64,000 bases of DNA from an uncultured Acidobacteriaceae bacterium (GTDB lineage Bacteria; Acidobacteriota; Terriglobia; Terriglobales; Acidobacteriaceae): assembly GCA_963785265.1 (NCBI GenBank), contig CAWAUN010000010.1, forward strand, positions 25,524 to 89,523, in the 5' to 3' direction. Below are positions 3,178 through 32,152 of the stretch, piece after piece. The translations under genes and the position numbers were made by a program. The notes under the pieces were generated by a model, which saw only the letters and a list, made by a program, of their open reading frames with translations, was not told the origin of the DNA and did not search any database. How positions within the stretch are numbered: the first letter of the stretch is position 1; every line of letters begins with the position of its first letter.

Positions 3178-5253
3178 TCATTGAAAATTATTGACCAGTG
3201 TCACAGAGGTAGGATTTGTACCCGCTGAATAGGGAGAATCGCCTAGTTGGCCGAGGTTGCCGTTCGTCCGGTCGACTTGAAACCCGGAAACGGTACTGCC
3301 AGCGTTGTTCGCCGCGTATACAAAGCTGTCAGAAAGGTCCAAGGTCAATCCGTAGGCGAGCGACACTCCGAGGAAAGGCGATTGTTGCAGGAGTTGTAGA
3401 TTGCCTTTGGTATCGAAGATTCGATATCCAATGATCGAAGTCGCGCCTCCAACATACAGGTGATTTCCCGGAGGATCGGCAACGATCGAATTTGACGAGC
3501 CAGAACCGACGAATGGAGAACCCGAAAGTTGGAGCAATTGGCCGGTGACTGAGTCGATTGCGTAGGCGGAGATGTTCTCTGACGACTGATTCAAGGCATA
3601 CAGATATTTTCCATCCGGGGTAATGGTCAGTGCCAGAGGCAAAGTCTCGGCGTTGACGGAGAAGACATTTTGCAACGTGCCGGTCCCGGCATCGATCTCA
3701 AGAATTGAGACCGTGTTCGACTGTGCATTGGCTACATAAACGAACTTGCCCCGCGGATCGATGACCAAAGCCCGCGGACCGGAACCTGAAGTTGCAAAAG
3801 GCGACCCCGGAACGGAGGTCAGTGCGCCACTGGGATTGACTGAATATCCGGAGATGGTATTGGAGGCGTCGTTCGCGACATAAACGTACCGCGCACTGTT
3901 ATCTACCGCAACTGCGGACGGATTCGTCCCGGCGAGATAGGGCGACCCGGGAGCGGGAGTAAGTGAGCCAGTCTGCGAGTTGATGGAAAATGCCGAAACA
4001 TTATTGCTACCGGCATTCGCCGTGAAGAGGAACGCTCCGCGCAAATCGGACACAGCCGATTGGGGCGACTGCCCGGTGGCGAACGGGGAGCCGCTTAGCG
4101 TTCCGAGCGAACCCGTTGCGGCCGAAACCTGGTATCCCCAAATGTCGTTGCTGGTCTGGTTACATTCGTACAGAAATTTCGGTGAATGAGTGACAGGCGC
4201 ATTGCCAGATGCAAGAGCAATGGAAAGTGGACTGCCTCGGGTGAGGATACTGCTCTCATTGAAGAGCGTTCCGGCCTTCGTTATGCCGAGAATCAACACT
4301 TCGTCGGAGTCGTGATCGGCCACGTAGAGCAAAGGTTCGTCTGGGCTGACGGTGAGGGCCAGAGGCCCCGACATTCCGGTTGAGAAAGGCGTAGCAAGTG
4401 GAGTGAGAGAACCAGTGGCGGGATTGAGGGTGTATTGCGAGACGGTCTTATCGGCCGAGTTTGCTACGTAGAGAAAACCTTTCCTTATTGCGGCAGCCAC
4501 CGGGACGGAGCCTGTCGCAAAGGGCGAACCAGGGATTTGAGTCAGCGCTCCGGTTGCTGAATTGATCGAGTAGGCGGAAATGCTGGCACCATTTCCATTC
4601 GGAACGTAGAGAAATTCGCCCTTCTGCTCAATTGCCACGCTTTGCGGATTCGGGCCTGCTGGAAAGGGAGACCCAGACACCGGAGTGATCATGCCGGTGC
4701 TCTGATTGATTGTGAACGCGGAGACACTGTTCGAGTTCACATTTGCCGTGAAGAGGAAGCGACCTTTGGGATCGATGGCCGTGGATATCGGACTATCGCC
4801 AGATAGCGATTGAATTGAAGTTAGAGCACCAGTGCCGGGATCAATCGCAAACACAGCAAGGCCGGAGCCAGTCACGGCAACCAGGAATTTTCCGCTAGGA
4901 TACATGGCGACGCTGAACTCGGGGCCAGTCTGGAATGGAGATCCTGGAACTGGAGCCAGGCTTCCGTTGTTGATATTGATGGCGTAACCCGCTATCCCAA
5001 CATTGCCTTCCGCCACGTACAAAAACGTCTGTGAAGGTGTCACAACCACTGCGCGAGGATCGCTCCCTGAGCCGGTGTAAACGTAGCCCATCGCGCGCAA
5101 AGCGGATTTTCCGATCGCAAATATCGAGACTGTGTCGTCCTGATCGTTCGCAACATAGGCAAAGCGAGGAACCAGAGCATGAGTCGCAGCATACCCGGGC
5201 AGTGCAATGTGCAGGAAAGCGACTGCCGCGAGGAGCTTCCAGTGATGGCTCAT
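3178..5253 (-). CDS. Secreted double beta-propeller protein, lactonase (7-bladed, YncE/Pgl-like) repeat family
   Basis: N-terminal signal-like MSHHWKLLAAVAFLHIALPGYAATHA. About 14 reiterations of the blade motif (F/Y)(L/V)YVAN..SNTVS.(F/Y).I...G.L....GSPF. Confidence 0.8.
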   Translation of the reverse strand: MSHHWKLLAAVAFLHIALPGYAATHALVPRFAYVANDQDDTVSIFAIGKSALRAMGYVYTGSGSDPRAVVVTPSQTFLYVAEGNVGIAGYAININNGSLAPVPGSPFQTGPEFSVAMYPSGKFLVAVTGSGLAVFAIDPGTGALTSIQSLSGDSPISTAIDPKGRFLFTANVNSNSVSAFTINQSTGMITPVSGSPFPAGPNPQSVAIEQKGEFLYVPNGNGASISAYSINSATGALTQIPGSPFATGSVPVAAAIRKGFLYVANSADKTVSQYTLNPATGSLTPLATPFSTGMSGPLALTVSPDEPLLYVADHDSDEVLILGITKAGTLFNESSILTRGSPLSIALASGNAPVTHSPKFLYECNQTSNDIWGYQVSAATGSLGTLSGSPFATGQSPQSAVSDLRGAFLFTANAGSNNVSAFSINSQTGSLTPAPGSPYLAGTNPSAVAVDNSARYVYVANDASNTISGYSVNPSGALTSVPGSPFATSGSGPRALVIDPRGKFVYVANAQSNTVSILEIDAGTGTLQNVFSVNAETLPLALTITPDGKYLYALNQSSENISAYAIDSVTGQLLQLSGSPFVGSGSSNSIVADPPGNHLYVGGATSIIGYRIFDTKGNLQLLQQSPFLGVSLAYGLTLDLSDSFVYAANNAGSTVSGFQVDRTNGNLGQLGDSPYSAGTNPTSVTLVNNFQ

Positions 5254-5308
5254 TTGCAGTTCTCCCCAGCAGATTCGAGAAGTTAGGAAGACCTAATGGC
5301 CCGGATTC

Positions 5309-6673
5309 TCAGTCGAGATGCACAATCCAAACATCTGAGCGTGGCTCACCATACCCCTCGGTTCCTACTTGGTTGTCCCATCCCGAGGTAAAGGCGAACC
5401 AGCGCCCGTCGAGGGAGAGATTGGCATCTGGCAACGTCCAGTAATATTCCGACTCCCAAGTCGAGCGATTGTGGGCGAATCGCCAGACGGTGGAGGCGAC
5501 CCCATCGGTTTCGATGCAAAAGATCTCACCGTCATAAGGCTGCTCGACCTCTTGATCTCCGGTCGGGCTATAGGTGTTCCCGCAGACGGGGACATTGTCA
5601 TTCAACTTTCCATCGTTCCAGACGAAGGCTTTTTCCATCCCCCAGTAGTAAGGCTGTGGCAAAGGATCGATCAATTGCGTCAGATCAGTAAGGTCGTCCA
5701 GCGGGCGCCGGAAGGTATTTAACTCATCGAGAACACCCGGCGCGTTAATGTAAGTGGAAAATCCAACTGCCGCATATCCATCGCAGAGCGGTCCGTGGTG
5801 GATGTAACAGGGCTCGACATCTAATGAAGTTGTATCCCAGATATAAAAGCCGGTTCCGAGGCTTATTCTCACATACTGTCCACTTCCGGAAATCTTCGAA
5901 TGGTTGAATAGAAACCGATCAGGCGCTGTGGCTTGTCCACTGGGTCCCCATTGGCCGCCGATTTGCCCCGTCTCCGTGTTGTACCAGCGGCACCCGAGTT
6001 GCTGGTCGTAAACGATCGCGAATACGCGATGGCTGACCGACTTGCCGCCGGCCGAGATCTCGATACGATTATCGTCATTCGATAGCGTCAGATCGGTGCT
6101 CCTGTTGTTGGGGCCGGCGACCAACGGGGGCTGGGTTCCGCAGGTCGTCGTATCGAAAAGCGGCTGCGTCTTCCCTGTCGAAAATTGGTACGTCGCAATC
6201 GTCAACGGCGCCTTAACCTCGGTGCCATACATCAGGTCAGAGTTGACGAAGCTGAAGGCGGGTCCCGGGCGCAAGGGCAGGACCAAGCCCCCGCCCGAAC
6301 CTGCGCCGGGAAGCGCACTTATCTGCATGGTGTCAGTATTAAAGGCGAAGGCAAAATCTGTTGAGTACTCGCCCGCGACGTAAAACTTGCTGTTGTCGGC
6401 GCTCCACGCGTTTACATCTGCTTTCGGAGAGCGGAAGAAGCTTCCCGGGTGCTTCGGATTTAGATTTTGGTCCGTAACGCGGACGATCATCGCTCCCAGA
6501 TCAGGGTCGGCAAAGACGGTATTTACGGGCGGGGGAACCATCGGAGTCTTTGGATAGAACAGCCGGTTTGTAATGGCATCCGGGTAAGGCTGGATGCCTT
6601 GTGCCCCGGCAAAACTTGCCGCCAGCGTAAGCACTAACAGGCAGAGTGACGAAACGGACTTACGCATCGTCAT
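5309..6673 (-). CDS. Secreted hypothetical protein (beta-rich, no recognisable catalytic motif)
   Basis: 454-aa ORF with signal peptide MRKSVSSLCLLVLTLAASFAGAQG. Same strand as the lactonase-like gene and 55 nt upstream of it. Confidence 0.7.
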   Translation of the reverse strand: MTMRKSVSSLCLLVLTLAASFAGAQGIQPYPDAITNRLFYPKTPMVPPPVNTVFADPDLGAMIVRVTDQNLNPKHPGSFFRSPKADVNAWSADNSKFYVAGEYSTDFAFAFNTDTMQISALPGAGSGGGLVLPLRPGPAFSFVNSDLMYGTEVKAPLTIATYQFSTGKTQPLFDTTTCGTQPPLVAGPNNRSTDLTLSNDDNRIEISAGGKSVSHRVFAIVYDQQLGCRWYNTETGQIGGQWGPSGQATAPDRFLFNHSKISGSGQYVRISLGTGFYIWDTTSLDVEPCYIHHGPLCDGYAAVGFSTYINAPGVLDELNTFRRPLDDLTDLTQLIDPLPQPYYWGMEKAFVWNDGKLNDNVPVCGNTYSPTGDQEVEQPYDGEIFCIETDGVASTVWRFAHNRSTWESEYYWTLPDANLSLDGRWFAFTSGWDNQVGTEGYGEPRSDVWIVHLD

Positions 6674-23459: not shown

Positions 23460-23582
23460 GAGCTTGTAACGGGCCAACCTTACTTTACCGATTAGGGACG
23501 GTTTGCCGACTATCCACCAACGGCCCTCAGAGTGGAGCGAAACGCCTGCCCTCCCTTGCACTATAATGACGCGCACACATTT

Positions 23583-26222
23583 ATGTCGCTGACCTCTGGT
23601 GCCAAACTCGGCCCTTACGAAATCCTCTCACTGCTGGGCGCGGGCGGCATGGGCGAAGTTTATCGCGCTCGTGACACGCGCTTGGACCGGATCGTGGCCG
23701 TAAAGATCTTGCCCGCGCATCTTTCCTCGGATAACGAATTCAAGCAACGATTCGAGCGTGAGGCGCGCACCGTTTCTTCGCTGAATCATCCACATATCTG
23801 CCAGCTTTTTGACGTGGGACGGGACGGCAGCACCGACTACCTAGTGATGGAGTTCCTCGACGGCGAAACCCTGGCTGAACGTGTGCGGCGCGGCGCATTG
23901 GCATTGAGCGAATTGTTGAAGATCGGGATCGATGTGGCCGACGCTTTGGCTGTGGCGCATCGGGCCGGAATTGTGCACCGCGATCTGAAGCCCGGCAACA
24001 TCATGCTGACGAAATCCGGTGCGAAGCTAATGGATTTTGGTCTGGCAAAACCGGCGCTGGCCGGTGCGCCGGGGTCGGCATCCGCGCCGCTGCTCTCGGC
24101 GGCGCGAACGATGAGCGGGCCGAGTCCGGCGAGTCCGCTGACTACGGCTGGAAGCATTGTCGGCACGATTCAGTACATGTCTCCGGAGCAGATTGAAGGG
24201 CGCGAAGCCGACGCGGCATCGGACATTTTTGCTTTCGGCGCTGTGCTGTACGAGATGGCAACGGGACGGCGCGCGTTTGAGGGAAAGAGCCAGATCACGG
24301 TCGCGTCCGCGATTCTGGAGAAAAATCCGGAGCCGATCAGCACGGTCAAGCCGTTGGCGCCGGTCGCTCTGGATCAACTGGTAGCAACTTGTCTGGCAAA
24401 AGAGCGCGACGAAAGATTTCAGTCCGCGCACGATCTCGCGCTGCAGTTGAAGGGGATCACCCACGCTCCTCAAGTTCCAACCTCTGCAACGCAGGAAGCG
24501 CGGCATACGAAGCGCTCCCGGCTGATGCTGGCAGTTGCGGCTGCTGTGCTCATCGCCGCGGCGCTTTTCTTTTACTTCTCGCAGCGTGGCAGCACTCCCA
24601 TGCTTTCGGTGCGCGCTTACATTCCTCCGCCCGCGGGCACGGCATTTCGTCCGACTGGCTTTGACGCCGGGCCAGTGGCAGTTTCTCCCGACGGCAAGAC
24701 GCTGGCTTTCTCGGCGGTCGACGAGAAAGGGATCACGAATCTCTGGGTGCGCGGGCTCAATGCGCCGCAAGCGACCATATTGCAAGGCACGGAAGACGCC
24801 AGCTACCCGTTCTGGTCGCCCGACAACAAATATCTGGGGTTCGTTGCCGATCGCAAGTTAAAGAAGATCGCCGTCACGGGCGGGGAAGCGCAAACCCTGG
24901 CGGACCACGCTTACGGCCGCGCCGATTGGGGCGCTGATGGAACGATTCTATTTGTGGGTGAGCACGGAATTGCCATTAAACAGGTCAGCGCCGCGGGAGG
25001 AGACAGCTCGATCGCGATGGTCCACGACAGCGATGAGTATGGGGTGAACTCGGCATGGTTCCTGCCTGACGGAAAACACTTCCTCTACACCGGTCACCGT
25101 GCCAATGCCCCCAGCCGGATCAAGGTTGGCACATTGGGCAAGCCCGAAAGCAGCGTGGTAGTAACAGAGGGGGCCGCGCCCAAATTTTCTTCGGGTCATC
25201 TGTTGTTCGTTCGCGGGGGAAAGATTCTGGCACAGCCTTTCGATCCGGACACATTCAAACTTTCCGGCGATCCGGAGGTGTTGGGCGAAGCCCTCTTGTT
25301 TTCTGTCTCTCCCAGCGGAGTACTGGCCTACCACGAAAGCTCGGCAAATTCAAAGCTGAAGATATTTGATCGCAGCGGAAATGTTGTCGCCACTCCCGGT
25401 CCGCTTGCCGCTTACGGCTCGCCGCGGTTCTCTCCCGATGGCAAATCGATCTCTGTGGAGGTACGCGACCCAAAGACGGGAAAAGACGATGTCTGGATCT
25501 ATCCGGTTTCGGGCGGACAGCCGACGCGAATCACCTTCGGTCCGGACGACTATCGGGCGACATGGTCTCCTGACGGCCGGCAGATCGCCTATGCCGTTCA
25601 CGATGGCAACAAGTTCTCGATTCACAAGCGCCCGCTGGATGGGAGCAATCCCGATGAGACCGTGTATGAAGATGACAAATTCATGTGGGCAACCGTGCAG
25701 GACTGGTCGCCGGACGGAAAGTATCTTTCGCTGGATCTGAACAAAGACCTGGTCTATAAAGATTGGATCCTCCCGCTGGCTGGAAAGCGCGAGCCATTCC
25801 TCTCCACTGCTACAACCGCGACGGATGTCAGCCAATACGACGGACATTTTTCTCCCGACGGTCGCTGGTTGTCATATTTCTCTTACGAGTCGGGTCGTCC
25901 GGAAGTCTACGTCGTGCCGTTTCAGGGGAATGGCGTGAAGTATCAGGCATCTACGACTGGAGGCTGGGTTTCACGCTTCGCAGGTAACGAATTCTTTTTC
26001 GTGACGATGGGCAACCGGTTGATGGCGGCACGAGTTGTGACGCAGCCGAATTTTCACTTGGAGGACTTACACCCGCTGTTTCAGTTAGACTTGCCCAATT
26101 TCACCGACCCGATCTTCGATGTGACACGTGATGGCCAGCGATTCGTCGTGCTCACCGCAGATCGCGCGAAGACTTCGTCAATCACCCTACTTACGAACTG
26201 GACGGCGGCGTTCAACAAATAG
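23583..26222 (+). CDS. Ser/Thr protein kinase fused through a TM segment to a TolB-like (PD40/WD40-like) beta-propeller
   Basis: GAGGMGEVYRA, HRDLKPGNIM, DFGLAK, GTIQYMSPEQ; TM segment LMLAVAAAVLIAAALFFYF; repeated ..SPDGK.LA(F/Y).. propeller motifs. ATG 23583 preferred (MSLTSGAKLGPYEI). Confidence 0.9.
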   Translation: MSLTSGAKLGPYEILSLLGAGGMGEVYRARDTRLDRIVAVKILPAHLSSDNEFKQRFEREARTVSSLNHPHICQLFDVGRDGSTDYLVMEFLDGETLAERVRRGALALSELLKIGIDVADALAVAHRAGIVHRDLKPGNIMLTKSGAKLMDFGLAKPALAGAPGSASAPLLSAARTMSGPSPASPLTTAGSIVGTIQYMSPEQIEGREADAASDIFAFGAVLYEMATGRRAFEGKSQITVASAILEKNPEPISTVKPLAPVALDQLVATCLAKERDERFQSAHDLALQLKGITHAPQVPTSATQEARHTKRSRLMLAVAAAVLIAAALFFYFSQRGSTPMLSVRAYIPPPAGTAFRPTGFDAGPVAVSPDGKTLAFSAVDEKGITNLWVRGLNAPQATILQGTEDASYPFWSPDNKYLGFVADRKLKKIAVTGGEAQTLADHAYGRADWGADGTILFVGEHGIAIKQVSAAGGDSSIAMVHDSDEYGVNSAWFLPDGKHFLYTGHRANAPSRIKVGTLGKPESSVVVTEGAAPKFSSGHLLFVRGGKILAQPFDPDTFKLSGDPEVLGEALLFSVSPSGVLAYHESSANSKLKIFDRSGNVVATPGPLAAYGSPRFSPDGKSISVEVRDPKTGKDDVWIYPVSGGQPTRITFGPDDYRATWSPDGRQIAYAVHDGNKFSIHKRPLDGSNPDETVYEDDKFMWATVQDWSPDGKYLSLDLNKDLVYKDWILPLAGKREPFLSTATTATDVSQYDGHFSPDGRWLSYFSYESGRPEVYVVPFQGNGVKYQASTTGGWVSRFAGNEFFFVTMGNRLMAARVVTQPNFHLEDLHPLFQLDLPNFTDPIFDVTRDGQRFVVLTADRAKTSSITLLTNWTAAFNK

Positions 26223-26777: not shown

Positions 26778-28130
26778 TCATGCGATCCGGGTTGCCACTG
26801 TCTTGGGTTGCTCAGACGCATCGGACTCCGGGCGCGAAACCATCGGAGCGCGGATGTCCAGAAACTGAACGAGGTCTTTTGAAAAGATCAGATCAAGCGT
26901 CCAATCGAAAGCAACTCGCAGTTTCTTCTCCAGTCTGGGGAGCTTGCTCAGGTAAATCGTTCGCCAGAGCCACCACGCGACAAACCCTGAGAAGTTGATC
27001 CCCAGTATATTAGCGACGCCCGTCCGCCGGCCGATCGCCGCGAGCTGTGCGATGGTCGAAAAATCGAATCGCTTCTTCGCTTTTCCACAAACGCTTGCGA
27101 TAACATTGTGCGCCACGACTTTGGCTTCACGAAGTGCATGCTGTGCGGTCGGTGGACAAAATCTCCCCGTCCGCCTATCCGGTATGGCCGCACAATCGCC
27201 TAAAGCCCAAACGCCAGGCCAAGCCTGAAGCTCGAGAGATTCGGTGACGAGCAGACGACCGCGTTCCTTTGCGCAAGGAATAGTTTCGAGCAATGGATTC
27301 GGTGAGGTTCCGGCGGTCCAAACGAGCGTGTTGGTGTGAATCGTAGACCCGTCACTCAATCGGACGACCCGGCCACAGAACCCCTCTACCCTCGCGTTCA
27401 GGCGAAGTTCCACTTTGCGCCCCGCGAGTTTTCGCTGAGCGTACGTGCCTAATTTTTCGTCCAATTCCGGAAGGATGACTGGCCCGGAATGGACGAGGAC
27501 GATTCGCAGCATGTCTTCCGTGAGGTTAGGGTAGGAGCGCAGTGCTCCCCGCACGAAATCGTTGATTCCCGCAACTGTCTCGACCCCGGCAAAACCCCCG
27601 CCCGCAATAACAAACGCCAATAGCGGTTCTTTCACTTTGCAGCAATCACTGTCTGCTTCTTCCAGGTGAGCGATGAGGTGATTCCGCAACCGCATGGCAT
27701 CGCCCAGCGTTTTCATAGTCAGCGCGTATTCCTGGAGCCCCGGAATGCCGTAAAGATTCGTGACAGAGCCCAGGCCCAAGACGAGAAAATCGAACTCGAG
27801 CGTGTGGTGATGATGATCGAAGCCATGGGAAACAACGACTCTCTTTTGTTCGATGTCAATCCGATCGACCTCTCCCGCAAACAAGTGAACACGCCGAAGC
27901 ATTTTGCGGACAGGATTCACAATCGTCGTCAAGTCGAGGTCGCTGGCTGCGACTTCGTGAAGCATGGGCGTGAACAAAAAGAAGTTCTCGCGATTAATGA
28001 GGGTAATCTCGACAGAAGGGTCCTGAGCGAGTTTCTTCTCCAACTCCATGGCGACGGTAAGACCCGCAAAGCCCCCGCCGAGAATGAGTATCCGCTTTCG
28101 TGGTACGCGATCCATGAATCGTCTCTCCAC
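26778..28130 (-). CDS. ndh: Type II NADH dehydrogenase (NDH-2) / FAD-dependent pyridine nucleotide-disulfide oxidoreductase
   Basis: Two dinucleotide-binding folds, ILILGGGFAGL and AFVIAGGGFAGVE, and a GDCA motif (WALGDCAAIP). C-terminal amphipathic/hydrophobic tail. Confidence 0.85.
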   Translation of the reverse strand: MERRFMDRVPRKRILILGGGFAGLTVAMELEKKLAQDPSVEITLINRENFFLFTPMLHEVAASDLDLTTIVNPVRKMLRRVHLFAGEVDRIDIEQKRVVVSHGFDHHHHTLEFDFLVLGLGSVTNLYGIPGLQEYALTMKTLGDAMRLRNHLIAHLEEADSDCCKVKEPLLAFVIAGGGFAGVETVAGINDFVRGALRSYPNLTEDMLRIVLVHSGPVILPELDEKLGTYAQRKLAGRKVELRLNARVEGFCGRVVRLSDGSTIHTNTLVWTAGTSPNPLLETIPCAKERGRLLVTESLELQAWPGVWALGDCAAIPDRRTGRFCPPTAQHALREAKVVAHNVIASVCGKAKKRFDFSTIAQLAAIGRRTGVANILGINFSGFVAWWLWRTIYLSKLPRLEKKLRVAFDWTLDLIFSKDLVQFLDIRAPMVSRPESDASEQPKTVATRIA

Positions 28131-28640
28131 GCCGCATGTGCGAAAGGCCCAGGGTTCAGTTCATGCGAACTCTCGATTTCAACTTCACACTGACAGGACT
28201 TGTCTCATCTGCGAGTACTTCAATCGAGTACAAGAACTTGCTTACGAGAGGCACCCGTCGGTCCGCTGCAACACGATGACACTCTGATCGTCGAGACACG
28301 GAGTAAGACCCAGAGGATCAATGCCACCAAACCTGGTAATTTCACAACCTCATCAGCGACATAGTTACCGCCCCATACCTCTGTGCAGGTCACTTGGTAT
28401 CCAGACTGATCTGTCTCCAGACCAGCATCGTCCGTTGAATTCGCACCGAAAGGCATTGAATTTGCCCTTGCGAGCCTTAGACATCACAACCTCATCTAGT
28501 GCTTCGTCAGATCTTCGTCGTCGCGTTCTATTGGCAGCCCCAGCAGATTACCGGCCGGACTGTTTCCTTGTCCGATGGCTTCCAAGCCGGATTCGTGAGA
28601 TGAGACGGTGCGGATAGGAAAAAGATACGGAAAATCTGCC

Positions 28641-28657
28641 TTGTCGACATTGTCGAC
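28641..28657 (+). promoter_or_regulatory. Tandem TTGTCGAC-a-TTGTCGAC direct repeat upstream of the sigma fusion gene
   Basis: ttgtcgacattgtcgac lies 83 nt upstream of ATG 28740. Together with GGAAAA at 28629 it can be read as GGAAAA-N17-GTCGAC, loosely ECF-promoter-like. Confidence 0.25.
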
Positions 28658-28739
28658 CGAGAAGCGGACTTTGGTTGCACTCAGCGAAGCCGAAGACGTA
28701 CACTCGCGTAAGTTGATCCGCGCCAGCCGACGGTGGGGG

Positions 28740-30566
28740 ATGAGCTTTCTCAGACAAGTTCAATTAGGCGACAAGTTCGGTCCTTTTGTCGTATTTCAGG
28801 AGGCCCTTGGGTTCATTCCCAATCTCCTTCGCGCTCAGACCCTTTTACCTCGTGCTATCGAGGCTCAGACGAAGCTTGAAAGTGCCGTGCGTCTACAGGA
28901 AGGAGCGATTTCCAGGGTACAGAAAGAACGAATCTTTCTAAGCATTGCAGGTGATCGACAAGACACGTATAGCGTGGCCGTGGACAGCAAGGTCATGTCT
29001 TCGCTTGGCGTGCCGGACAGTCAAATCGATGATCTCTTGAACGACTGCCATCATGCGGGCCTCTCGGCGCCTGACTTAGCCTCCCTGCAATTTTGCCTCA
29101 AGTTAAGCCGCCACGCTCGGTCAGTGTGCTCAAAAGACATCGAAGCACTGCGGGCATGCGGGTTCGAGGACGAGTCGATACTAGAAGCCGTCGTTATGAC
29201 TGCCTTGGCCGTCTACCGCTGCACGCTGTCCGTGGGTTTGGGTCCGGAGCCAGATTTCGGATCGCGGAAGATCGCTTCGACGAGATTTGTTCCACCGCGT
29301 GAGGGAGCGCCCCATGGCTTGTTGCCCGACGATCATGAGGCAGAACGAAGAAAAGGGCCATATGTCTACGCTCCGTACCTGAGCCCCAAGACGTTTGCAC
29401 CTTTTGCCATCGTTCAGAAGAGTCACGGATTCATACCGAACTTTTTCCGCGCTCAAACTTTGCGGCCCGACTTGCTGGAAGCAGAACTGGAGGCAGAGGG
29501 CAGGATTCTGCAGCCTGAGGATGTCCTGACACGAATACAAAAGGAATGCATTCTGTTGGCCGTGTCGGCGGCGAACCTCAACTCCTATTGCGTTGCAGTG
29601 CATTGCAACCTATTGCGAGGCTTGGGCATGCCTCCGGAGGAAGGCGACCAGATTGCCGTGGATCATCATCAGTCAGGTTTATCAGAGGCTGATAGGGCGT
29701 TACTGGACTTCGCTGTGAAATTGGGAACGCGTGCTTCAGAGTTTTCCCGTGAGGACATTGTCAAACTTCAGAGATTTGGTTTTACCGAAGAACAGATTTT
29801 GGAATGCGAGGTGGTCACAGCTCTCAACAATTTCGCCAATACCCTCCAAATGGGGCTCGGAATCGAGCCGGATTTTCAGCCACCCCTGGTCTTTCAAGAA
29901 AATAAACTGTATCTTCCTGTGGCTGCCCGCCGTCACACTGAAGATGGACGTGTTCCTTCAGCTTCTGACCCGCTGCAGGACCGGGACGCTGGATTGGTCG
30001 CGGAGGCGCAGGACGGGAAGCTGGAGGCTTTCGAGGAATTGGTTCGCCGCCATACCCAGTTGATTTATCGCACTCTGACAGCAATCCTGGGTAACCAGGT
30101 CGATGCGCAGGACGCAATGCAGGATGTTCTCTTAGCCGCGTTCAAGCACATCGGCGGATTCCAGGGCCGCTCGAAGTTCTCGACTTGGCTGGTGAGTATC
30201 GCCAGGAATACAGCGCTTCAACGTTTGCGACGCCGGAAAGACGTTGAGAGCTTGGATGAAGGTGGGTACGAGGAAGATCGGGGCTTCCGCCCTCGCCAGG
30301 TAAGAGCTTGGGAGGACAACCCAGAGCAGCGCTATTCTAACTTGGAAACCCGGCAACTCATTGAAAAGGGTATCTTGGAGCTTCCCGTGAAGTACCGCGT
30401 TGTGGTGATGCTTCGGGATATCGAGCAACTCTCGACGGACGAAGTTGCCCGGCAGTTGGGGCTATCCGTGCCTACAGTTAAGATACGGCTGCTGAGGGGC
30501 CGACTCATGCTGCGAGAGTGGCTCTCGCCTCACTTCACGACAAGCCTCAGGAGAGCGGCCCAATGA
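28740..30566 (+). CDS. ECF (group IV) sigma-70 factor with an N-terminal extension of two AhpD/carboxymuconolactone-decarboxylase-like modules
   Basis: Modules open with ALGFIPNLLRAQTLLP and SHGFIPNFFRAQTLRP. Region 2: DAMQDVLLAAFKHIGGFQGRSKFSTWLVSIARNTAL. Region 4: LPVKYRVVVMLRDIEQLSTDEVARQLGLSVPTVKIRLLRGR. The ORF maximum starts at GTG 28608. Confidence 0.8.
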   Translation: MSFLRQVQLGDKFGPFVVFQEALGFIPNLLRAQTLLPRAIEAQTKLESAVRLQEGAISRVQKERIFLSIAGDRQDTYSVAVDSKVMSSLGVPDSQIDDLLNDCHHAGLSAPDLASLQFCLKLSRHARSVCSKDIEALRACGFEDESILEAVVMTALAVYRCTLSVGLGPEPDFGSRKIASTRFVPPREGAPHGLLPDDHEAERRKGPYVYAPYLSPKTFAPFAIVQKSHGFIPNFFRAQTLRPDLLEAELEAEGRILQPEDVLTRIQKECILLAVSAANLNSYCVAVHCNLLRGLGMPPEEGDQIAVDHHQSGLSEADRALLDFAVKLGTRASEFSREDIVKLQRFGFTEEQILECEVVTALNNFANTLQMGLGIEPDFQPPLVFQENKLYLPVAARRHTEDGRVPSASDPLQDRDAGLVAEAQDGKLEAFEELVRRHTQLIYRTLTAILGNQVDAQDAMQDVLLAAFKHIGGFQGRSKFSTWLVSIARNTALQRLRRRKDVESLDEGGYEEDRGFRPRQVRAWEDNPEQRYSNLETRQLIEKGILELPVKYRVVVMLRDIEQLSTDEVARQLGLSVPTVKIRLLRGRLMLREWLSPHFTTSLRRAAQ

Positions 30567-30805
30567 TCACCTGCGAGGACTTCTTCGCTGAGTTCGGAGA
30601 TTACCTTGAGAATCAGGTGTCGCCAGAAGTCCGTAAGGAACTCGAACTGCACGTGTCCCAGTGCCGCGCTTGCCATGTGTTGTACGACTCCAGCTGCAAG
30701 ACTGTAAAGATCGTGACAGAGAGTGGTTCGTTCAAGTTACCGCAGAGCGTCTCTGACCCAATCATAGAGCGTGTCATGACGAGGCTGAGAACAGACCGCA
30801 AGTAA
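30563..30805 (+). CDS. Small soluble zinc-binding (ZAS-type, zf-HC2) anti-sigma factor
   Basis: ATG overlaps the sigma stop as ATGA. HxxxCxxC motif present as HVSQCRAC. 80 aa with no hydrophobic segment. Confidence 0.75.
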   Translation: MITCEDFFAEFGDYLENQVSPEVRKELELHVSQCRACHVLYDSSCKTVKIVTESGSFKLPQSVSDPIIERVMTRLRTDRK

Positions 30806-31126
30806 CAAGGTCGAAATCCTGTCTTAAACCGCGAGTCATTCACACCTCCGCCGCCTTACGCCTGTCGAAAGTCGGCATTCGCGAGTTCATCGGATCAGCG
30901 TCGCGCATCTTTTTGAGTCCTTCATAGGCTCCCAGTTCTCTCCAGTCAGTGAACTATTGTCCATGCCTACGGCAACGTGCGCTTCGTGCTTTGGGCATTT
31001 GCCCGGTCATGGCAGCTTTTTTTTGCGCCTGTGTAACCTTCGCACGACACTGGACTCCTATCGCCTGTGAGAGTTGAGTGCCCGCGGGTGCTCAGCGAAA
31101 GTCCAAAAACACAAGGAGAAACCATT

Positions 31127-31576
31127 ATGGTTCGCAACATCAAGATAGCTTTGGCACTCGCTGCACTGGCGTTCACATTTGGGTTGCAGCCCTCGGTGCA
31201 CGCGCAAGACAGCATGAAGCATGAAAGCAAAACTCTGGCAACTGGCACCTTCCACGGCAAAGTGCACAAAACTTCCGGCCGCGCCACGGTTTACCAGGAG
31301 TCAGATGGGAAGCTCGTCCTGCGCCTGACAAACTTCAAGACGTCCAACGGGCCCGATGTACACGTGATTCTGATCGCAGCCAAGGACGCGGACGACGACG
31401 CCAATTTTCTCAACAGCAGCACCCAGCGAGTTGAGCTGGGGAATCTGAAGGGGAATGAGGGTGACCAGAATTACGAAATACCCAGCGACACGGACCTGAG
31501 CAAATTCCAAACCGTTTCGATCTATTGCGAGCGGTTCAACGCCAACTTCGGCGCTGCGCCACTTGAGAAGTTCTAA
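31127..31576 (+). CDS. DM13-domain protein, secreted
   Basis: AAGGAG lies 8 nt before ATG 31127. Signal peptide MVRNIKIALALAALAFTFGLQPSVHAQ. GTFHG..HKTSGRATVYQ..LRLTNFKTSNGPDVHV.L...GNEGDQNYEIP...VSIYCERFNANFG matches the DM13 pattern. Confidence 0.75.
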   Translation: MVRNIKIALALAALAFTFGLQPSVHAQDSMKHESKTLATGTFHGKVHKTSGRATVYQESDGKLVLRLTNFKTSNGPDVHVILIAAKDADDDANFLNSSTQRVELGNLKGNEGDQNYEIPSDTDLSKFQTVSIYCERFNANFGAAPLEKF

Positions 31577-31595
31577 GTACGTTCACTTCAATGGA

Positions 31596-31619
31596 ATCGG
31601 GCAGGTGGACCTGCCCGAT
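31596..31619 (+). other. Perfect 10-bp stem / 4-nt loop intercistronic hairpin between the two DM13 genes
   Basis: atcgggcagg-tgga-cctgcccgat, 20 nt after the first stop. No U-tract follows. Confidence 0.5.
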
Positions 31620-31642
31620 CCATGCATTCGAAGGAGAAACTC

Positions 31643-32152
31643 ATGAATATGCAGGCAGGTTCCTGGCTCTCGCGTAAGAAGTGGATCTTGGCTGTAGTCG
31701 GTCTGCCGATTCTGGTGGGGGCTTGGTGGGCCTTCCGCCCCGAAAAACTCTGGATCAATCAAAAAGTCAGTGAGCCCGCGCCGTTCGCTGTGAGCACTGA
31801 TCCTCAGCCGCTTTATACCGGCCGACTGGAAGGCAAGGCTCACCAAACAAGCGGGCGAGGAACGATCTATAAGACCTCCGATGGCAGGCAGTATCTCCGG
31901 CTGACGGATTTCTCGACCTCCAATGGCCCGGACGTTCACGTTATCTTGGCCCGGAGTGATGACGAGAACCTTACCCAAGAGATCGTCAAAGGTCAACTTG
32001 ACAGCGTCGAGCTCGGGTCCCTTAAGGGCAACCAAGGAGATCAGAATTACGATCTCCCTGCATCGGTCGACTTACAGAAATACAACGCCGCCGTTATCTA
32101 CTGTGAGCGATTCCATGCGGTATTCGGCGTCGCCAAGCTCGAACAGTTTTGA
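31643..32152 (+). CDS. DM13-domain protein, membrane-anchored paralogue
   Basis: AAGGAG at 31632-31637 lies 5 nt before ATG 31643. N-terminal anchor WILAVVGLPILVGAWWAF. GRLEGKAHQTSGRGTIYK..LRLTDFSTSNGPDVHV..GNQGDQNYDLP..AVIYCERFHAVFG. Confidence 0.75.
   Translation: MNMQAGSWLSRKKWILAVVGLPILVGAWWAFRPEKLWINQKVSEPAPFAVSTDPQPLYTGRLEGKAHQTSGRGTIYKTSDGRQYLRLTDFSTSNGPDVHVILARSDDENLTQEIVKGQLDSVELGSLKGNQGDQNYDLPASVDLQKYNAAVIYCERFHAVFGVAKLEQF

Follow-up and report, generated by a model that had tools for sequence, protein, structure and literature searches.

A duplicated AhpD-fold extension on an ECF sigma factor family of Acidobacteriota and its candidate role in thiol-responsive regulation

Extracytoplasmic function (ECF) sigma factors form the third major pillar of bacterial signal transduction, and the on-board sensor domains described in fused form so far are almost all located at the C-terminus. 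The gene considered here has the reverse layout. In a 64,000-nucleotide stretch of DNA from an uncultured Acidobacteriaceae bacterium (contig CAWAUN010000010.1, positions 25,524 to 89,523; "the window" below), two CMD/AhpD-fold modules in tandem precede an ECF sigma factor in a single open reading frame (ORF), and the gene of a small, predicted zinc-binding anti-sigma (ZAS) follows. The locus raises the question of what a 400-residue enzyme-fold extension contributes to a sigma factor that is also accompanied by an anti-sigma. An earlier interpretation made from the letters of the window (the sequence-only reading) proposed that the extension gates the sigma in cis, in addition to or instead of the trans anti-sigma. 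Comparison with related loci shows that the protein belongs to an Acidobacteriota-wide ECF sigma family whose N-terminus carries an internally duplicated AhpD/CMD-fold tandem. Further, an intragenic copy of a promoter-like motif and flanking candidate target promoters, absent from the earlier reading, change the picture of how this module is regulated.

The fusion protein and its spread

The reading frame runs from ATG 28740 to TGA 30566 without interruption, as had been claimed, and the two tandem CMD-like modules and the complete ECF sigma proposed for it are recovered by profile searches (coordinates in Table 1). On the 608-residue protein, Pfam places CMD at residues 243–304, Sigma70_r2 at 434–500, and Sigma70_r4_2 at 539–591. 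The NCBIfam model TIGR01926 (peroxidase-related enzyme) matches in two stretches with 166 bits against a cutoff of 81.8, and the sigma70-ECF superfamily model TIGR02937 scores 108 bits (cutoff 42.9). With zf-HC2 on the following ORF, all four Pfam families suggested for checking have been matched. Aligned without gaps over 161 residues, the two modules (residues 13–173 and 219–379) share 42% identity (E 3e-41), which makes the tandem an internal duplication. The fusion starts with MSFL, which is kept among orthologs, while the in-frame stretch 5' of it is not conserved; ATG 28740 is therefore preferred over GTG 28608. The GTG start is ruled out by several orthologs that have stop codons 1–8 codons upstream of MSFL.

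The sigma part is a group 4 (ECF) factor, with regions 2 and 4 matched and no match to region 3 or region 1 in Pfam. The best NCBIfam sigma model, PRK11922, reaches 176 bits, below its cutoff of 204, and the SigW, SigE, and RpoE models also remain below their cutoffs. The closest solved sigma factors are SigW and Mycobacterium tuberculosis (Mtb) SigE. This is the only ECF sigma detected in the 64-kb window.

Since a missed stop or a frameshift could join separate CMD and sigma genes, the junction has been followed in 79 loci, the yield of a scan of species-representative genomes, all of them metagenome-assembled genomes (MAGs). Eight of these loci are interrupted, one of them from a long-read MAG set prone to indels, which would fit an assembly or annotation artefact. 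On the other hand, the CMD-sigma frame is open in the other 71 species-level genomes, and the same holds for hundreds of metagenomic proteins obtained in different projects and with different technologies. This rules out a frameshift or misassembly, and the probability of an artefact is negligible. The best 120 homologs are without exception full-length (~600–870 residues), with the same Pfam architecture and 73–97% identity. The fusion is a genuine, conserved architecture.

The search for orthologous fusions that had been suggested returned hundreds of full-length homologs across Acidobacteriota MAGs. Nearly all of the 79 loci are from Acidobacteriota (Terriglobia: Acidiferrales/Acidoferrales, Acidobacteriaceae, and Bryobacterales), and a few short contigs among them have been binned outside the phylum. 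An exhaustive search of 50%-identity representatives gives 273 clusters at E<1e-30, of which dozens are full-length tandem-CMD-sigma clusters at 37–51% identity. A few others seem to carry a single CMD, and relatives that consist of a sigma or a CMD on its own are also among them. Further tandem fusions have been found by profile search; the few with NCBI names, from MAGs of Bryobacteraceae, Vicinamibacterales, and Ca. Polarisedimenticolia, are called "peroxidase-related enzyme". A separate, widespread single-CMD-sigma family has been rejected, as the profile search gave tandem proteins only and such forms are rare or fragments. The family is widespread in Acidobacteriota, a phylum that ranks among the dominant and the least tractable in soil, and its members appear in public databases under no other annotation than "peroxidase-related enzyme" or "ECF sigma". 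The complete CMD-CMD-sigma/ZAS cassette is present as two paralogs in several genomes (loci L020/L021, L009/L018, and L036/L043); the L020 and L021 copies share one chromosome, 38 kb apart.

The AlphaFold2 model of the full-length protein (99-sequence alignment) has a mean predicted local distance difference test score (pLDDT) of 79 and a predicted TM-score (pTM) of 0.62. Confidence is high for the CMD modules and decent for sigma2 and sigma4, and three linkers come out as disordered. Modelled alone, the tandem reaches a pLDDT of 90.5 and a pTM of 0.91, and is predicted to fold as one rigid intramolecular pseudo-dimer, joined to the sigma by a flexible linker of ~33 residues. Given the difference between the two pTM values and the disordered linker, no fixed CMD-sigma contact is predicted. 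In Foldseek searches each module matches 2prr, 6k40, 3c1l, 2oyo, and 2pfx with a target TM-score of 0.81–0.87 (0.83–0.87 for module 2) and a root-mean-square deviation (rmsd) of ~2.0–2.4 Å. Solved relatives crystallise with 12 chains per entry. Chains of human Sestrin2 are the only solved ones that align across both halves of the tandem (398–435 columns, E ~3e-5), and the match is loose (target TM-score 0.58–0.68, rmsd 10–14 Å, 11–14% identity). Sestrin2 acts as a sensor and keeps a Cys/His site in one of its halves. The modelled sigma2/sigma4 arrangement is nearer to compact, anti-sigma-bound sigma factors (0.69–0.70 for SigW-RsiW, 0.70 for CnrH-CnrY) than to RNA polymerase-bound ones (0.33–0.45).

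The linker between sigma2 and sigma4 contains a conserved motif, FRPRxVxxWxDNPE (residues 516–529, ~30285–30326), in which W524, P528, and E529 are invariant and AlphaFold gives a pLDDT of ~30. The same motif is present in the free-standing sigma relatives P0251, P0261, and P0268, and it may contact RNA polymerase or the anti-sigma.

Active-site residues and the anti-sigma factor

Module 2 is the best-conserved part of the fusion, with a mean column identity of 0.86, compared to 0.83 for the sigma, 0.73 for module 1, and 0.58 for the linker between module 2 and the sigma. The assignment of the extension to the TIGR01926 and AhpD/CMD proteins is given by the TIGR01926 score, by PF02627 (35 bits against 23), and by the Foldseek matches. 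The solved TIGR01926-type proteins have the motif C-x-x-C-x-x-x-H, which reads NQCLYCVVAHG in 2prr. At this site module 2 reads NLNSYCVAVHC. The first cysteine is replaced with Asn281, Cys284 and His288 are kept, and an extra cysteine, Cys289, follows the histidine. Module 1 of the window reads RQDTYSVAVDS, and all three catalytic positions are degenerate (Asp75, Ser78, and Asp82); the second cysteine and the histidine four residues on, both present in module 2, are therefore absent (Ser78 and Asp82). Among 72 close orthologs, Cys284 and His288 are invariant (72/72 each) and Cys289 is found in 70.

The sequence-only reading held that only module 2 keeps a Cys/His cluster and called this module potentially redox-active. 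The first statement describes the window correctly but not its relatives, as Cys78 of module 1 is kept in 66 of the 72 close orthologs and both Cys and His are kept in module 1 of more distant members. Ser78 is unusual, and the Cys-free module 1 of the window is a recent minority state. The second statement has to be qualified, as module 2 keeps Cys284, His288, and Cys289 but lacks the first cysteine (Asn281). Of 384 full-length family members, 348 have the Cys-x3-His dyad in module 2, 158 have it in module 1, and 23 lack it in both. The two cysteines of module 2 are coupled, with both present in 329 members, neither in 30, and a single one in 25. A cysteine at the canonical first position occurs in 0/384 of the second modules and in 3/384 of the first. 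The catalytic C-x-x-C dithiol is thus lacking from the fusion family, and for this reason the fused domain is not a canonical AhpD dithiol enzyme.

Among the members that lack both cysteines of module 2, seven have been examined in their genomic context (position 284 is Gly, Trp, Phe, or Ser). In all seven loci a free CMD gene of ~190 codons lies directly after the ZAS gene, with gaps between the two genes down to 10–18 nt; the contig of locus L088 ends 48 codons into this gene. The free CMD proteins have an intact SAANLSTYCVTAHCE motif, and the ZAS is kept in 7/7. By comparison, in the 77 other loci whose downstream sequence is long enough, no CMD gene occurs within 900 nt; in L003 there is one ~1.2 kb away. 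Because the loss of the fused site coincides with an intact free CMD (7/7 against 0/77), the C-x3-HC site appears to be needed and to be suppliable in trans, which implies that the thiol chemistry of module 2 matters to the system. This, together with the near-invariance of Cys284, His288, and Cys289, agrees with the earlier idea of a thiol-relevant module. The fused tandem is kept after its site has been lost, and therefore probably has a second role, such as docking or regulation. Likewise, the 6% of members without a dyad in either module keep the tandem, pointing to a role of the extension beyond catalysis.

An ORF with the HxxxCxxC motif follows the fusion in 71/71 intact loci. The length of this ORF is 80 codons in 63 loci, and in 64 its start overlaps the stop of the sigma gene as ATGA or GTGA. 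Its putative zinc ligands Cys4, His30, Cys34, and Cys37 are invariant in 72 orthologs, with the spacing C-x25-H-x3-C-x2-C, the same as in RsrA (C11/H37/C41/C44). The 80-residue protein of the window scores 28.2 bits with zf-HC2 (cutoff 22.2) and contains no hydrophobic run of more than three residues. The earlier description of an ATGA-coupled HxxxCxxC protein without a transmembrane segment therefore stands. The H-x3-C-x2-C motif with an upstream fourth ligand, and a gene that adjoins that of its sigma, are the features of the ZAS class. The equivalog model TIGR03988 (antisig_RsrA) matches over nearly the full length with 1e-7 and 32 bits, below the cutoff of 62.5. A PDB sequence search with the anti-sigma gave only interleukin-receptor matches, which have been judged spurious. 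The ZAS is also found beside members at ~50% identity and beside all Cys-less members examined. The trans anti-sigma is an obligatory part of the system and not an alternative to the extension; since it accompanies the fusion, with all four ligands invariant, in every locus examined, gating in cis "instead of" the anti-sigma is unlikely.

Promoter-like elements and a putative short isoform

One family of promoter-like motifs is present in three copies around the fusion gene, before the DM13 genes that lie downstream, divergently upstream of the sigma gene, and inside the DNA coding for the CMD-sigma linker. We will use the terms P_down, P_div, and P_int for these copies. P_down is strongly conserved and bipartite, with the form TGTAAC(C/T)TT-N16-TCCTAT. 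In the window it is the only match of a position weight matrix (PWM) in 64 kb (33.6 bits), and shuffled sequences give 0.2 matches. It is located just downstream of the anti-sigma gene in 53 of 81 loci, whatever gene comes next, and the first gene behind it codes for a DM13 protein in 33/52. P_div lies ~115 nt upstream of the sigma start and has the minus-strand form CG(C/T)ATCTTTTTC-N12-CCGTCTCATC. A PWM trained on DM13 upstream regions picks this element in the same register at a fixed position, with a median best score of 0.26 against −10.5 in controls. In locus L080, a sequence that matches the P_div consensus by eye lies between the sigma gene and a divergent DM13-DM13-NDH2 operon.

The same PWM, trained on DM13 upstream regions only, has been applied to the coding DNA of the fusion. 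In the 90-nt linker of 72 orthologs the median score is 17.8 bits (51 at at least 10 bits, 35 at at least 18), and the matches always fall in one register with a spacer longer by one nucleotide. In the rest of the same ORFs (~1,700 nt) the median is −0.4 bits and 0/72 reach 10 bits. A PWM made from the divergent block also matches the sense strand of the linker between module 2 and the sigma in 9/9 divergent loci. In locus L014, P_int reads AGTGCATCTTTC-N12-GACTCCTATCGG, to be compared with CGTGTAACTTTC-N11-GACTCCTATCGC in the DM13 promoter. The P_int of the window is the CCGTCACA variant, close to the window's own divergent block.

The codons under P_int are constrained beyond the peptide. 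Leu392 is encoded by CTT in 55 of 59 Leu codons, against a global share of 0.15; Thr398 is ACT in 45/45 (0.20 globally), and its alternative, Arg, is CGT in 20/20; Lys389 is AAA in 61/65 (0.41 globally), and Asn388 is AAT in 58/60 (0.49 globally). At codons 390 and 391 the amino acid varies (Val/Ala/Met/Leu and His/Asn/Tyr) and the bases ..G and.AT are fixed. Since synonymous sites are fixed and bases stay constant under changing amino acids, the constraint acts on the DNA and not on the peptide. Codon 406 lies 24 nt beyond the point where the −10 element begins (codon 398) and is GTG or ATG in 47 of 72 orthologs, and a Shine-Dalgarno-like motif precedes it in 42 of these 47. GTG makes up 45/48 of the Val codons at this position, against 0.37 globally. 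A start here would give a sigma of ~203 residues, an ordinary ECF size.

It is possible, although doubtful, that the intragenic element is not an active promoter but a relic of an ancestral sigma promoter or the site of another regulator, with only the long isoform being made. The lineage of the window lacks a good downstream start codon, and the leader ahead of GTG406 would be very short, both of which fit this explanation. However, a relic would not be expected to fix synonymous sites across orthologs that are 55–93% identical, the half-sites and spacing match those of the intergenic DM13 promoter, and the GTG at codon 406 (45/48) and the Shine-Dalgarno-like motif (42/47) are conserved together.

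The long ORF itself is preceded by another element. Block B, a bipartite TTGCAC-N16-CGTACACT, is found at −62 to −68 from the ATG in 60/73 loci and as a single copy in the window, and is a candidate promoter of the long isoform. A housekeeping sigma-70 promoter is not supported for it, as a consensus scan finds no sigma-70-type site in 28100–31200. It does not resemble the DM13-type PWM, and it has been rejected as a regulon motif, being present once per locus and only upstream of the fusion gene. In L027 a single extra copy (position 4386, plus strand) is flanked by an ftsY-like gene and by the 3' end of the NDH-2 gene, with no plus-strand ORF behind it. With the DM13 PWM, no P_down-type motif has been found upstream of the long ORF.

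Table 1. Features of the fusion locus and its surroundings (window positions; promoter and RNA elements are candidates)
Feature	Position	Strand	Basis
NDH-2-type flavoprotein gene, divergent from the sigma gene, probable P_div target	26778..28130	-	Pyr_redox_2 1.5e-40, NDH2_C 1.5e-9
P_div (block A), candidate ECF-type element, CCGTATCTTTTTC-N-CCGTCTCATC	28599..28630	-	Points away from sigma gene; conserved block
Block B, conserved bipartite TTGCAC-N16-CGTACACT, candidate long-isoform promoter	28675..28704	+	60/73 loci
Fusion gene, 608 aa: tandem CMD/AhpD-fold modules, then ECF sigma	28740..30566	+	ORF, domain matches, full-length conservation
CMD module 1, residues ~14-173	28779..29258	+	2oyo best PDB match 2.7e-12; pLDDT >90
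Inter-module linker, residues ~181-204, predicted disordered	29280..29351	+	pLDDT <50, both models
CMD module 2, residues ~214-380	29379..29879	+	TIGR01926 best stretch 214-377; 2prr 4.3e-21
Codons of C284-V-A-V-H288-C289: nucleophile-Cys/His pair and extra Cys	29589..29606	+	Alignment to 2prr, ortholog counts
CMD2-sigma linker, residues ~380-412, variable, predicted disordered	29877..29975	+	Column identity 0.58; pLDDT ~33
P_int, candidate intragenic ECF-type promoter, CTGTATCTTCC-N-CCGTCACAC	29907..29938	+	Linker-coding DNA; PWM, synonymous-site fixation
Sigma region 2, residues ~417-498	29988..30233	+	Pfam Sigma70_r2 3.5e-18; model helices
Sigma region 4, residues ~528-606	30321..30557	+	Pfam Sigma70_r4_2 7e-14; model
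Soluble 80-aa zinc-binding anti-sigma (ZAS), predicted	30563..30805	+	zf-HC2 2e-6; 4-nt ATGA overlap with sigma gene
Terminator-like hairpin and T-run between anti-sigma gene and P_down	30999..31025	+	T-run conserved in alignment
P_down, candidate ECF-type promoter before DM13 genes, TGTAACCTT-N16-TCCTAT	31030..31062	+	Conserved alignment, PWM
Conserved RNA hairpin in DM13 leader	31074..31094	+	Pair counting
Two tandem DM13-domain genes, likely secreted, predicted regulon	31127..32152 (31127-31576, 31622-32152)	+	Pfam DM13 3.5e-26, 3.1e-24

Proposed regulation, known systems and neighbouring genes

Based on these observations, we tentatively infer a thiol- or redox-responsive sigma/anti-sigma module with a tethered AhpD-like sensor, a mechanism whose likelihood we place close to even but short of it. 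The ZAS would hold the sigma domain inactive. A thiol-reactive or redox cue would be perceived at Cys284 and His288 (with Cys289) of module 2, and this site would act on the Cys3His zinc site of the ZAS or in concert with it. As the module has no resolving CxxC partner, its chemistry could be either an oxidant relay to the ZAS or a reductive reset. The CMD site would have to be present in the complex, either fused to the sigma or in a free CMD subunit docked onto a fused tandem that has degenerated. The released sigma would read one promoter family (G-T-A-T/A-C, N16-17, C-G/T-T-C), with P_down driving the secreted DM13 proteins and P_div driving NDH-2 or other divergent genes. The P_int transcript would encode only the ~190–200-residue sigma domain and the anti-sigma, which would amount to classical sigma/anti-sigma autoregulation without the sensor extension, and the long, sensor-bearing isoform would come from a different upstream promoter, block B. 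A more elaborate version, possible but on the unlikely side, is a two-isoform, self-amplifying switch. A constitutive "sentinel" with a one-Cys peroxidatic module would relay oxidation to the bound ZAS, by analogy with Orp1-Yap1 of yeast, and the freed sigma would fire P_int, for sensor-less sigma and anti-sigma, together with periplasmic DM13/NDH-2 electron-transfer genes; in some lineages the active CMD would work in trans, docking on the degenerate tandem.

Several points weigh against this mechanism. Direct gating of the sigma by the extension in cis would be hypothetical, as the position of the tandem relative to the sigma is undefined in the model. The promoter function of the motifs, and their reading by this sigma, are suggested by conservation and position, and the second ECF sigma found nearby in 23 loci could read them instead. 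The lineage of the window lacks the GTG406 start and has only TTG419 with a poor Shine-Dalgarno motif, which makes the short isoform least certain for the window itself. Cys284 and Cys289 are five residues apart in one predicted helix (282–294), a geometry that would be unfavourable for a simple intrahelical disulfide. The 23 of 384 members with no Cys-His dyad in either module (genomic context covered for three) have to be accommodated, and the seven Cys-less loci may form one clade, so that the complementation may reflect a single evolutionary event.

The main rival, for which ECF41 is the precedent, is that the tandem is simply a product regulated by the sigma, an output enzyme fused in frame that has no signalling role, with all regulation exerted via the ZAS. 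The commonest ECF41 layout has the CMD gene before the ECF gene (>CMD> >ECF>), and the CMD is the sole target, without a signalling function (PMC3426412). A linker that is long and flexible, and a CMD-sigma orientation that the model leaves undefined, fit such a passive tether, and P_int, between CMD and sigma, resembles the ancestral autoregulatory promoter of a once-separate sigma gene. We nevertheless consider this explanation unlikely. The fusion persists from 37 to 97% identity in several Acidobacteriota classes and split forms are rare; the full-length tandem is kept despite catalytic decay and a free active CMD, where redundant cargo should be lost. Moreover, the sigma is not an ECF41 factor, as it lacks the C-terminal SnoaL extension and has an anti-sigma, and control of the CMD part by the fused sigma is not obvious, because a P_down-type motif was not found upstream of the long ORF.

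The extension could also be a non-redox sensor or scaffold, a sestrin-like pseudoenzyme that binds a ligand or partner or that oligomerises as TIGR01926 proteins may, with the sigma controlled independently of thiols. The resemblance of the rigid pseudo-dimer to Sestrin2 across both halves, the 12 chains per entry of the solved relatives, the general lack of the canonical CxxC, and the 6% of members without any dyad are in line with this. Its improbability follows from the sequence record of the site, since Cys284, His288, and Cys289 are the most conserved tandem residues in most lineages and the loss of the cysteines coincides with the arrival of an intact free copy, so the Cys site is needed; the looseness of the Sestrin2 match also speaks against it. 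Far less probable is a pro-sigma whose N-terminal 400 residues are an inhibitory pro-domain removed by proteolysis, as in BldN (ECF121). The disordered linker 380–412 would be an accessible cleavage site, but it is conserved as DNA and not as peptide, no protease gene is conserved nearby, and, instead of a short pro-peptide, the extension is a conserved tandem of enzyme-fold modules, large and well folded.

The preferred thiol-responsive module has partial counterparts among known systems. As in SigR-RsrA (ECF12, Streptomyces) and SigH-RshA, the gene immediately downstream of the ECF sigma codes for a small soluble ZAS, which would hold the sigma, and the window ZAS shares with RsrA the ligand spacing and a nearly full-length match to TIGR03988. 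On the other hand, it remains below the RsrA equivalog cutoff (32 against 62.5 bits), the sigma carries a 400-residue AhpD-fold tandem, and both the phylum and the predicted regulon (DM13, NDH-2) are different. SigR is made as two isoforms from two promoters (2021 ECF reclassification); the sigma-dependent promoter of SigR makes the longer isoform, while the predicted internal promoter of the window would make the shorter. RpoE-ChrR (ECF11) is likewise a soluble ZAS system for oxidative stress with a separate sensor domain attached to the pair, but the cupin sensor of ChrR is fused to the anti-sigma, whereas in the window it is the sigma that carries the candidate sensor, next to a minimal anti-sigma.

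ECF41 factors (SigJ, Ecf41Bli) are also tied genomically to CMD/AhpD proteins, often as >CMD> >ECF>, and have a regulatory domain fused to the sigma (PMC3426412). They have a C-terminal SnoaL-like extension, no anti-sigma, a separate CxxC CMD target without a signalling role, and the promoter TGTCACA-N16-CGTC. The window fusion shows none of these four features. Membership in ECF41 has been rejected, as the protein ends 17 residues after Sigma70_r4_2 (591/608), a ZAS is present, and CxxC is absent; the ECF41-like model PRK08241 gives only 75 bits (cutoff 240).

According to the 2021 ECF reclassification, extensions at the N-terminus are less common than those at the C-terminus and generally shorter, and BldN/ECF121 is the only well-described case, in agreement with the earlier remark that fused ECF extensions are mostly C-terminal. 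BldN and SigC (ECF36s4) share with the window an N-terminal extension on an ECF sigma, and BldN is also under an anti-sigma. Their extensions are short, unrelated, and not of an enzyme fold, and that of BldN is removed by proteolysis; Pfam and NCBIfam comparison found no similarity of the 400-residue tandem to either. A 2022 review lists no CMD/AhpD-sigma fusion mode. No sigma factor with a fused CMD/AhpD domain turned up in the literature searched, and an unremarked listing, for instance in the supplementary tables of the 2021 reclassification, is possible; the earlier statement that the architecture belongs to no described ECF regulatory mode agrees with the ECF literature searched.

Each module matches the TIGR01926 proteins 2prr, 6k40, 3c1l, 2oyo, and 2pfx with E-values down to 4e-21. 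Unlike these single-module proteins with C-x-x-C-x-x-x-H, the fusion has two modules per chain, Asn or Asp in place of the first cysteine, and an extra cysteine after the histidine. The likeness to Sestrin2, the human leucine and stress sensor with two AhpD-fold halves in one globular unit, is an architectural analogy, and no match of the fusion to the sestrin family (Pfam PA26) is seen at E<=1. The system differs from known ZAS switches and sensor-fused ECFs in where the fused domain is located and in what kind of domain it is, in the interchangeability of the candidate sensor site between cis and trans, and in the putative intragenic promoter. If the proposed mechanism is true, an AhpD-like enzyme-fold tandem has been recruited as a sigma-tethered sensor, a bacterial parallel to the sestrins, the sensor site can be provided in cis or in trans, and a promoter overlaid on coding DNA splits one gene into sensor-bearing and sensor-less isoforms. 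The proposal also places the bacterial DM13 "electron-transfer" proteins, so far uncharacterised, in a concrete predicted regulon together with NDH-2, and the compact modular parts may be of interest for building orthogonal ECF circuits.

Among the neighbours that recur beside the fusion, two secreted-looking DM13 proteins are encoded directly downstream in 35 loci and an NDH-2 gene is present in 29, mostly divergent upstream; the signal peptides of the DM13 proteins have been judged by eye. In L080 (51% identity) the same genes are rearranged into the divergent operon mentioned above. In the DM13 leader hairpin, 86.8% of cells are paired, against 28–51% in slid controls, with G.U the commonest pair at one position and double changes in five pairs. 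The pairs have been counted explicitly, as RNAalifold gave no structure owing to outlier rows. The hairpin could affect leader stability or attenuation. No tRNA genes and no Rfam families at the gathering threshold have been found in the 64-kb window, and 28100–28800 has no Rfam match at E<=1.

An alpha/beta-hydrolase (25 loci), an SDR (24), and a second, ordinary-length ECF sigma (23 of the 79 loci, and L081–L088) also recur. This second sigma is often divergent, is 36% identical to the fused sigma domain, and sometimes has its own larger zf-HC2 anti-sigma (~296 residues). Given this position, cross-talk or a sigma cascade may occur, and block B could be read by the second sigma. In L081 (2609–5591, ~50% identity) the divergent neighbours are DoxD, an HbpS-like/cupin protein, and a glyoxalase in place of DM13 and NDH-2; the regulon therefore appears to vary, yet to remain related to redox or electrophile stress. 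No protease gene is conserved in the neighbourhood of the cassette. At 23532–26222 (plus strand) the window encodes an 896-residue Ser/Thr protein kinase fused to PD40/WD40-like beta-propeller repeats, which is not conserved beside the cassette elsewhere. Between the divergent promoter and NDH-2 lies a 78-codon ORF (28220–28456, minus strand). It is what remains of a SpoIIE/RsbU-type PP2C phosphatase gene and has been rejected as a gene in its own right, as the phosphatase gene is intact in L043. There the gene occupies 4979–5965 (minus strand), directly behind the same promoter (Pfam SpoIIE 4e-37), and the phosphatase may belong to the regulon of other genomes.

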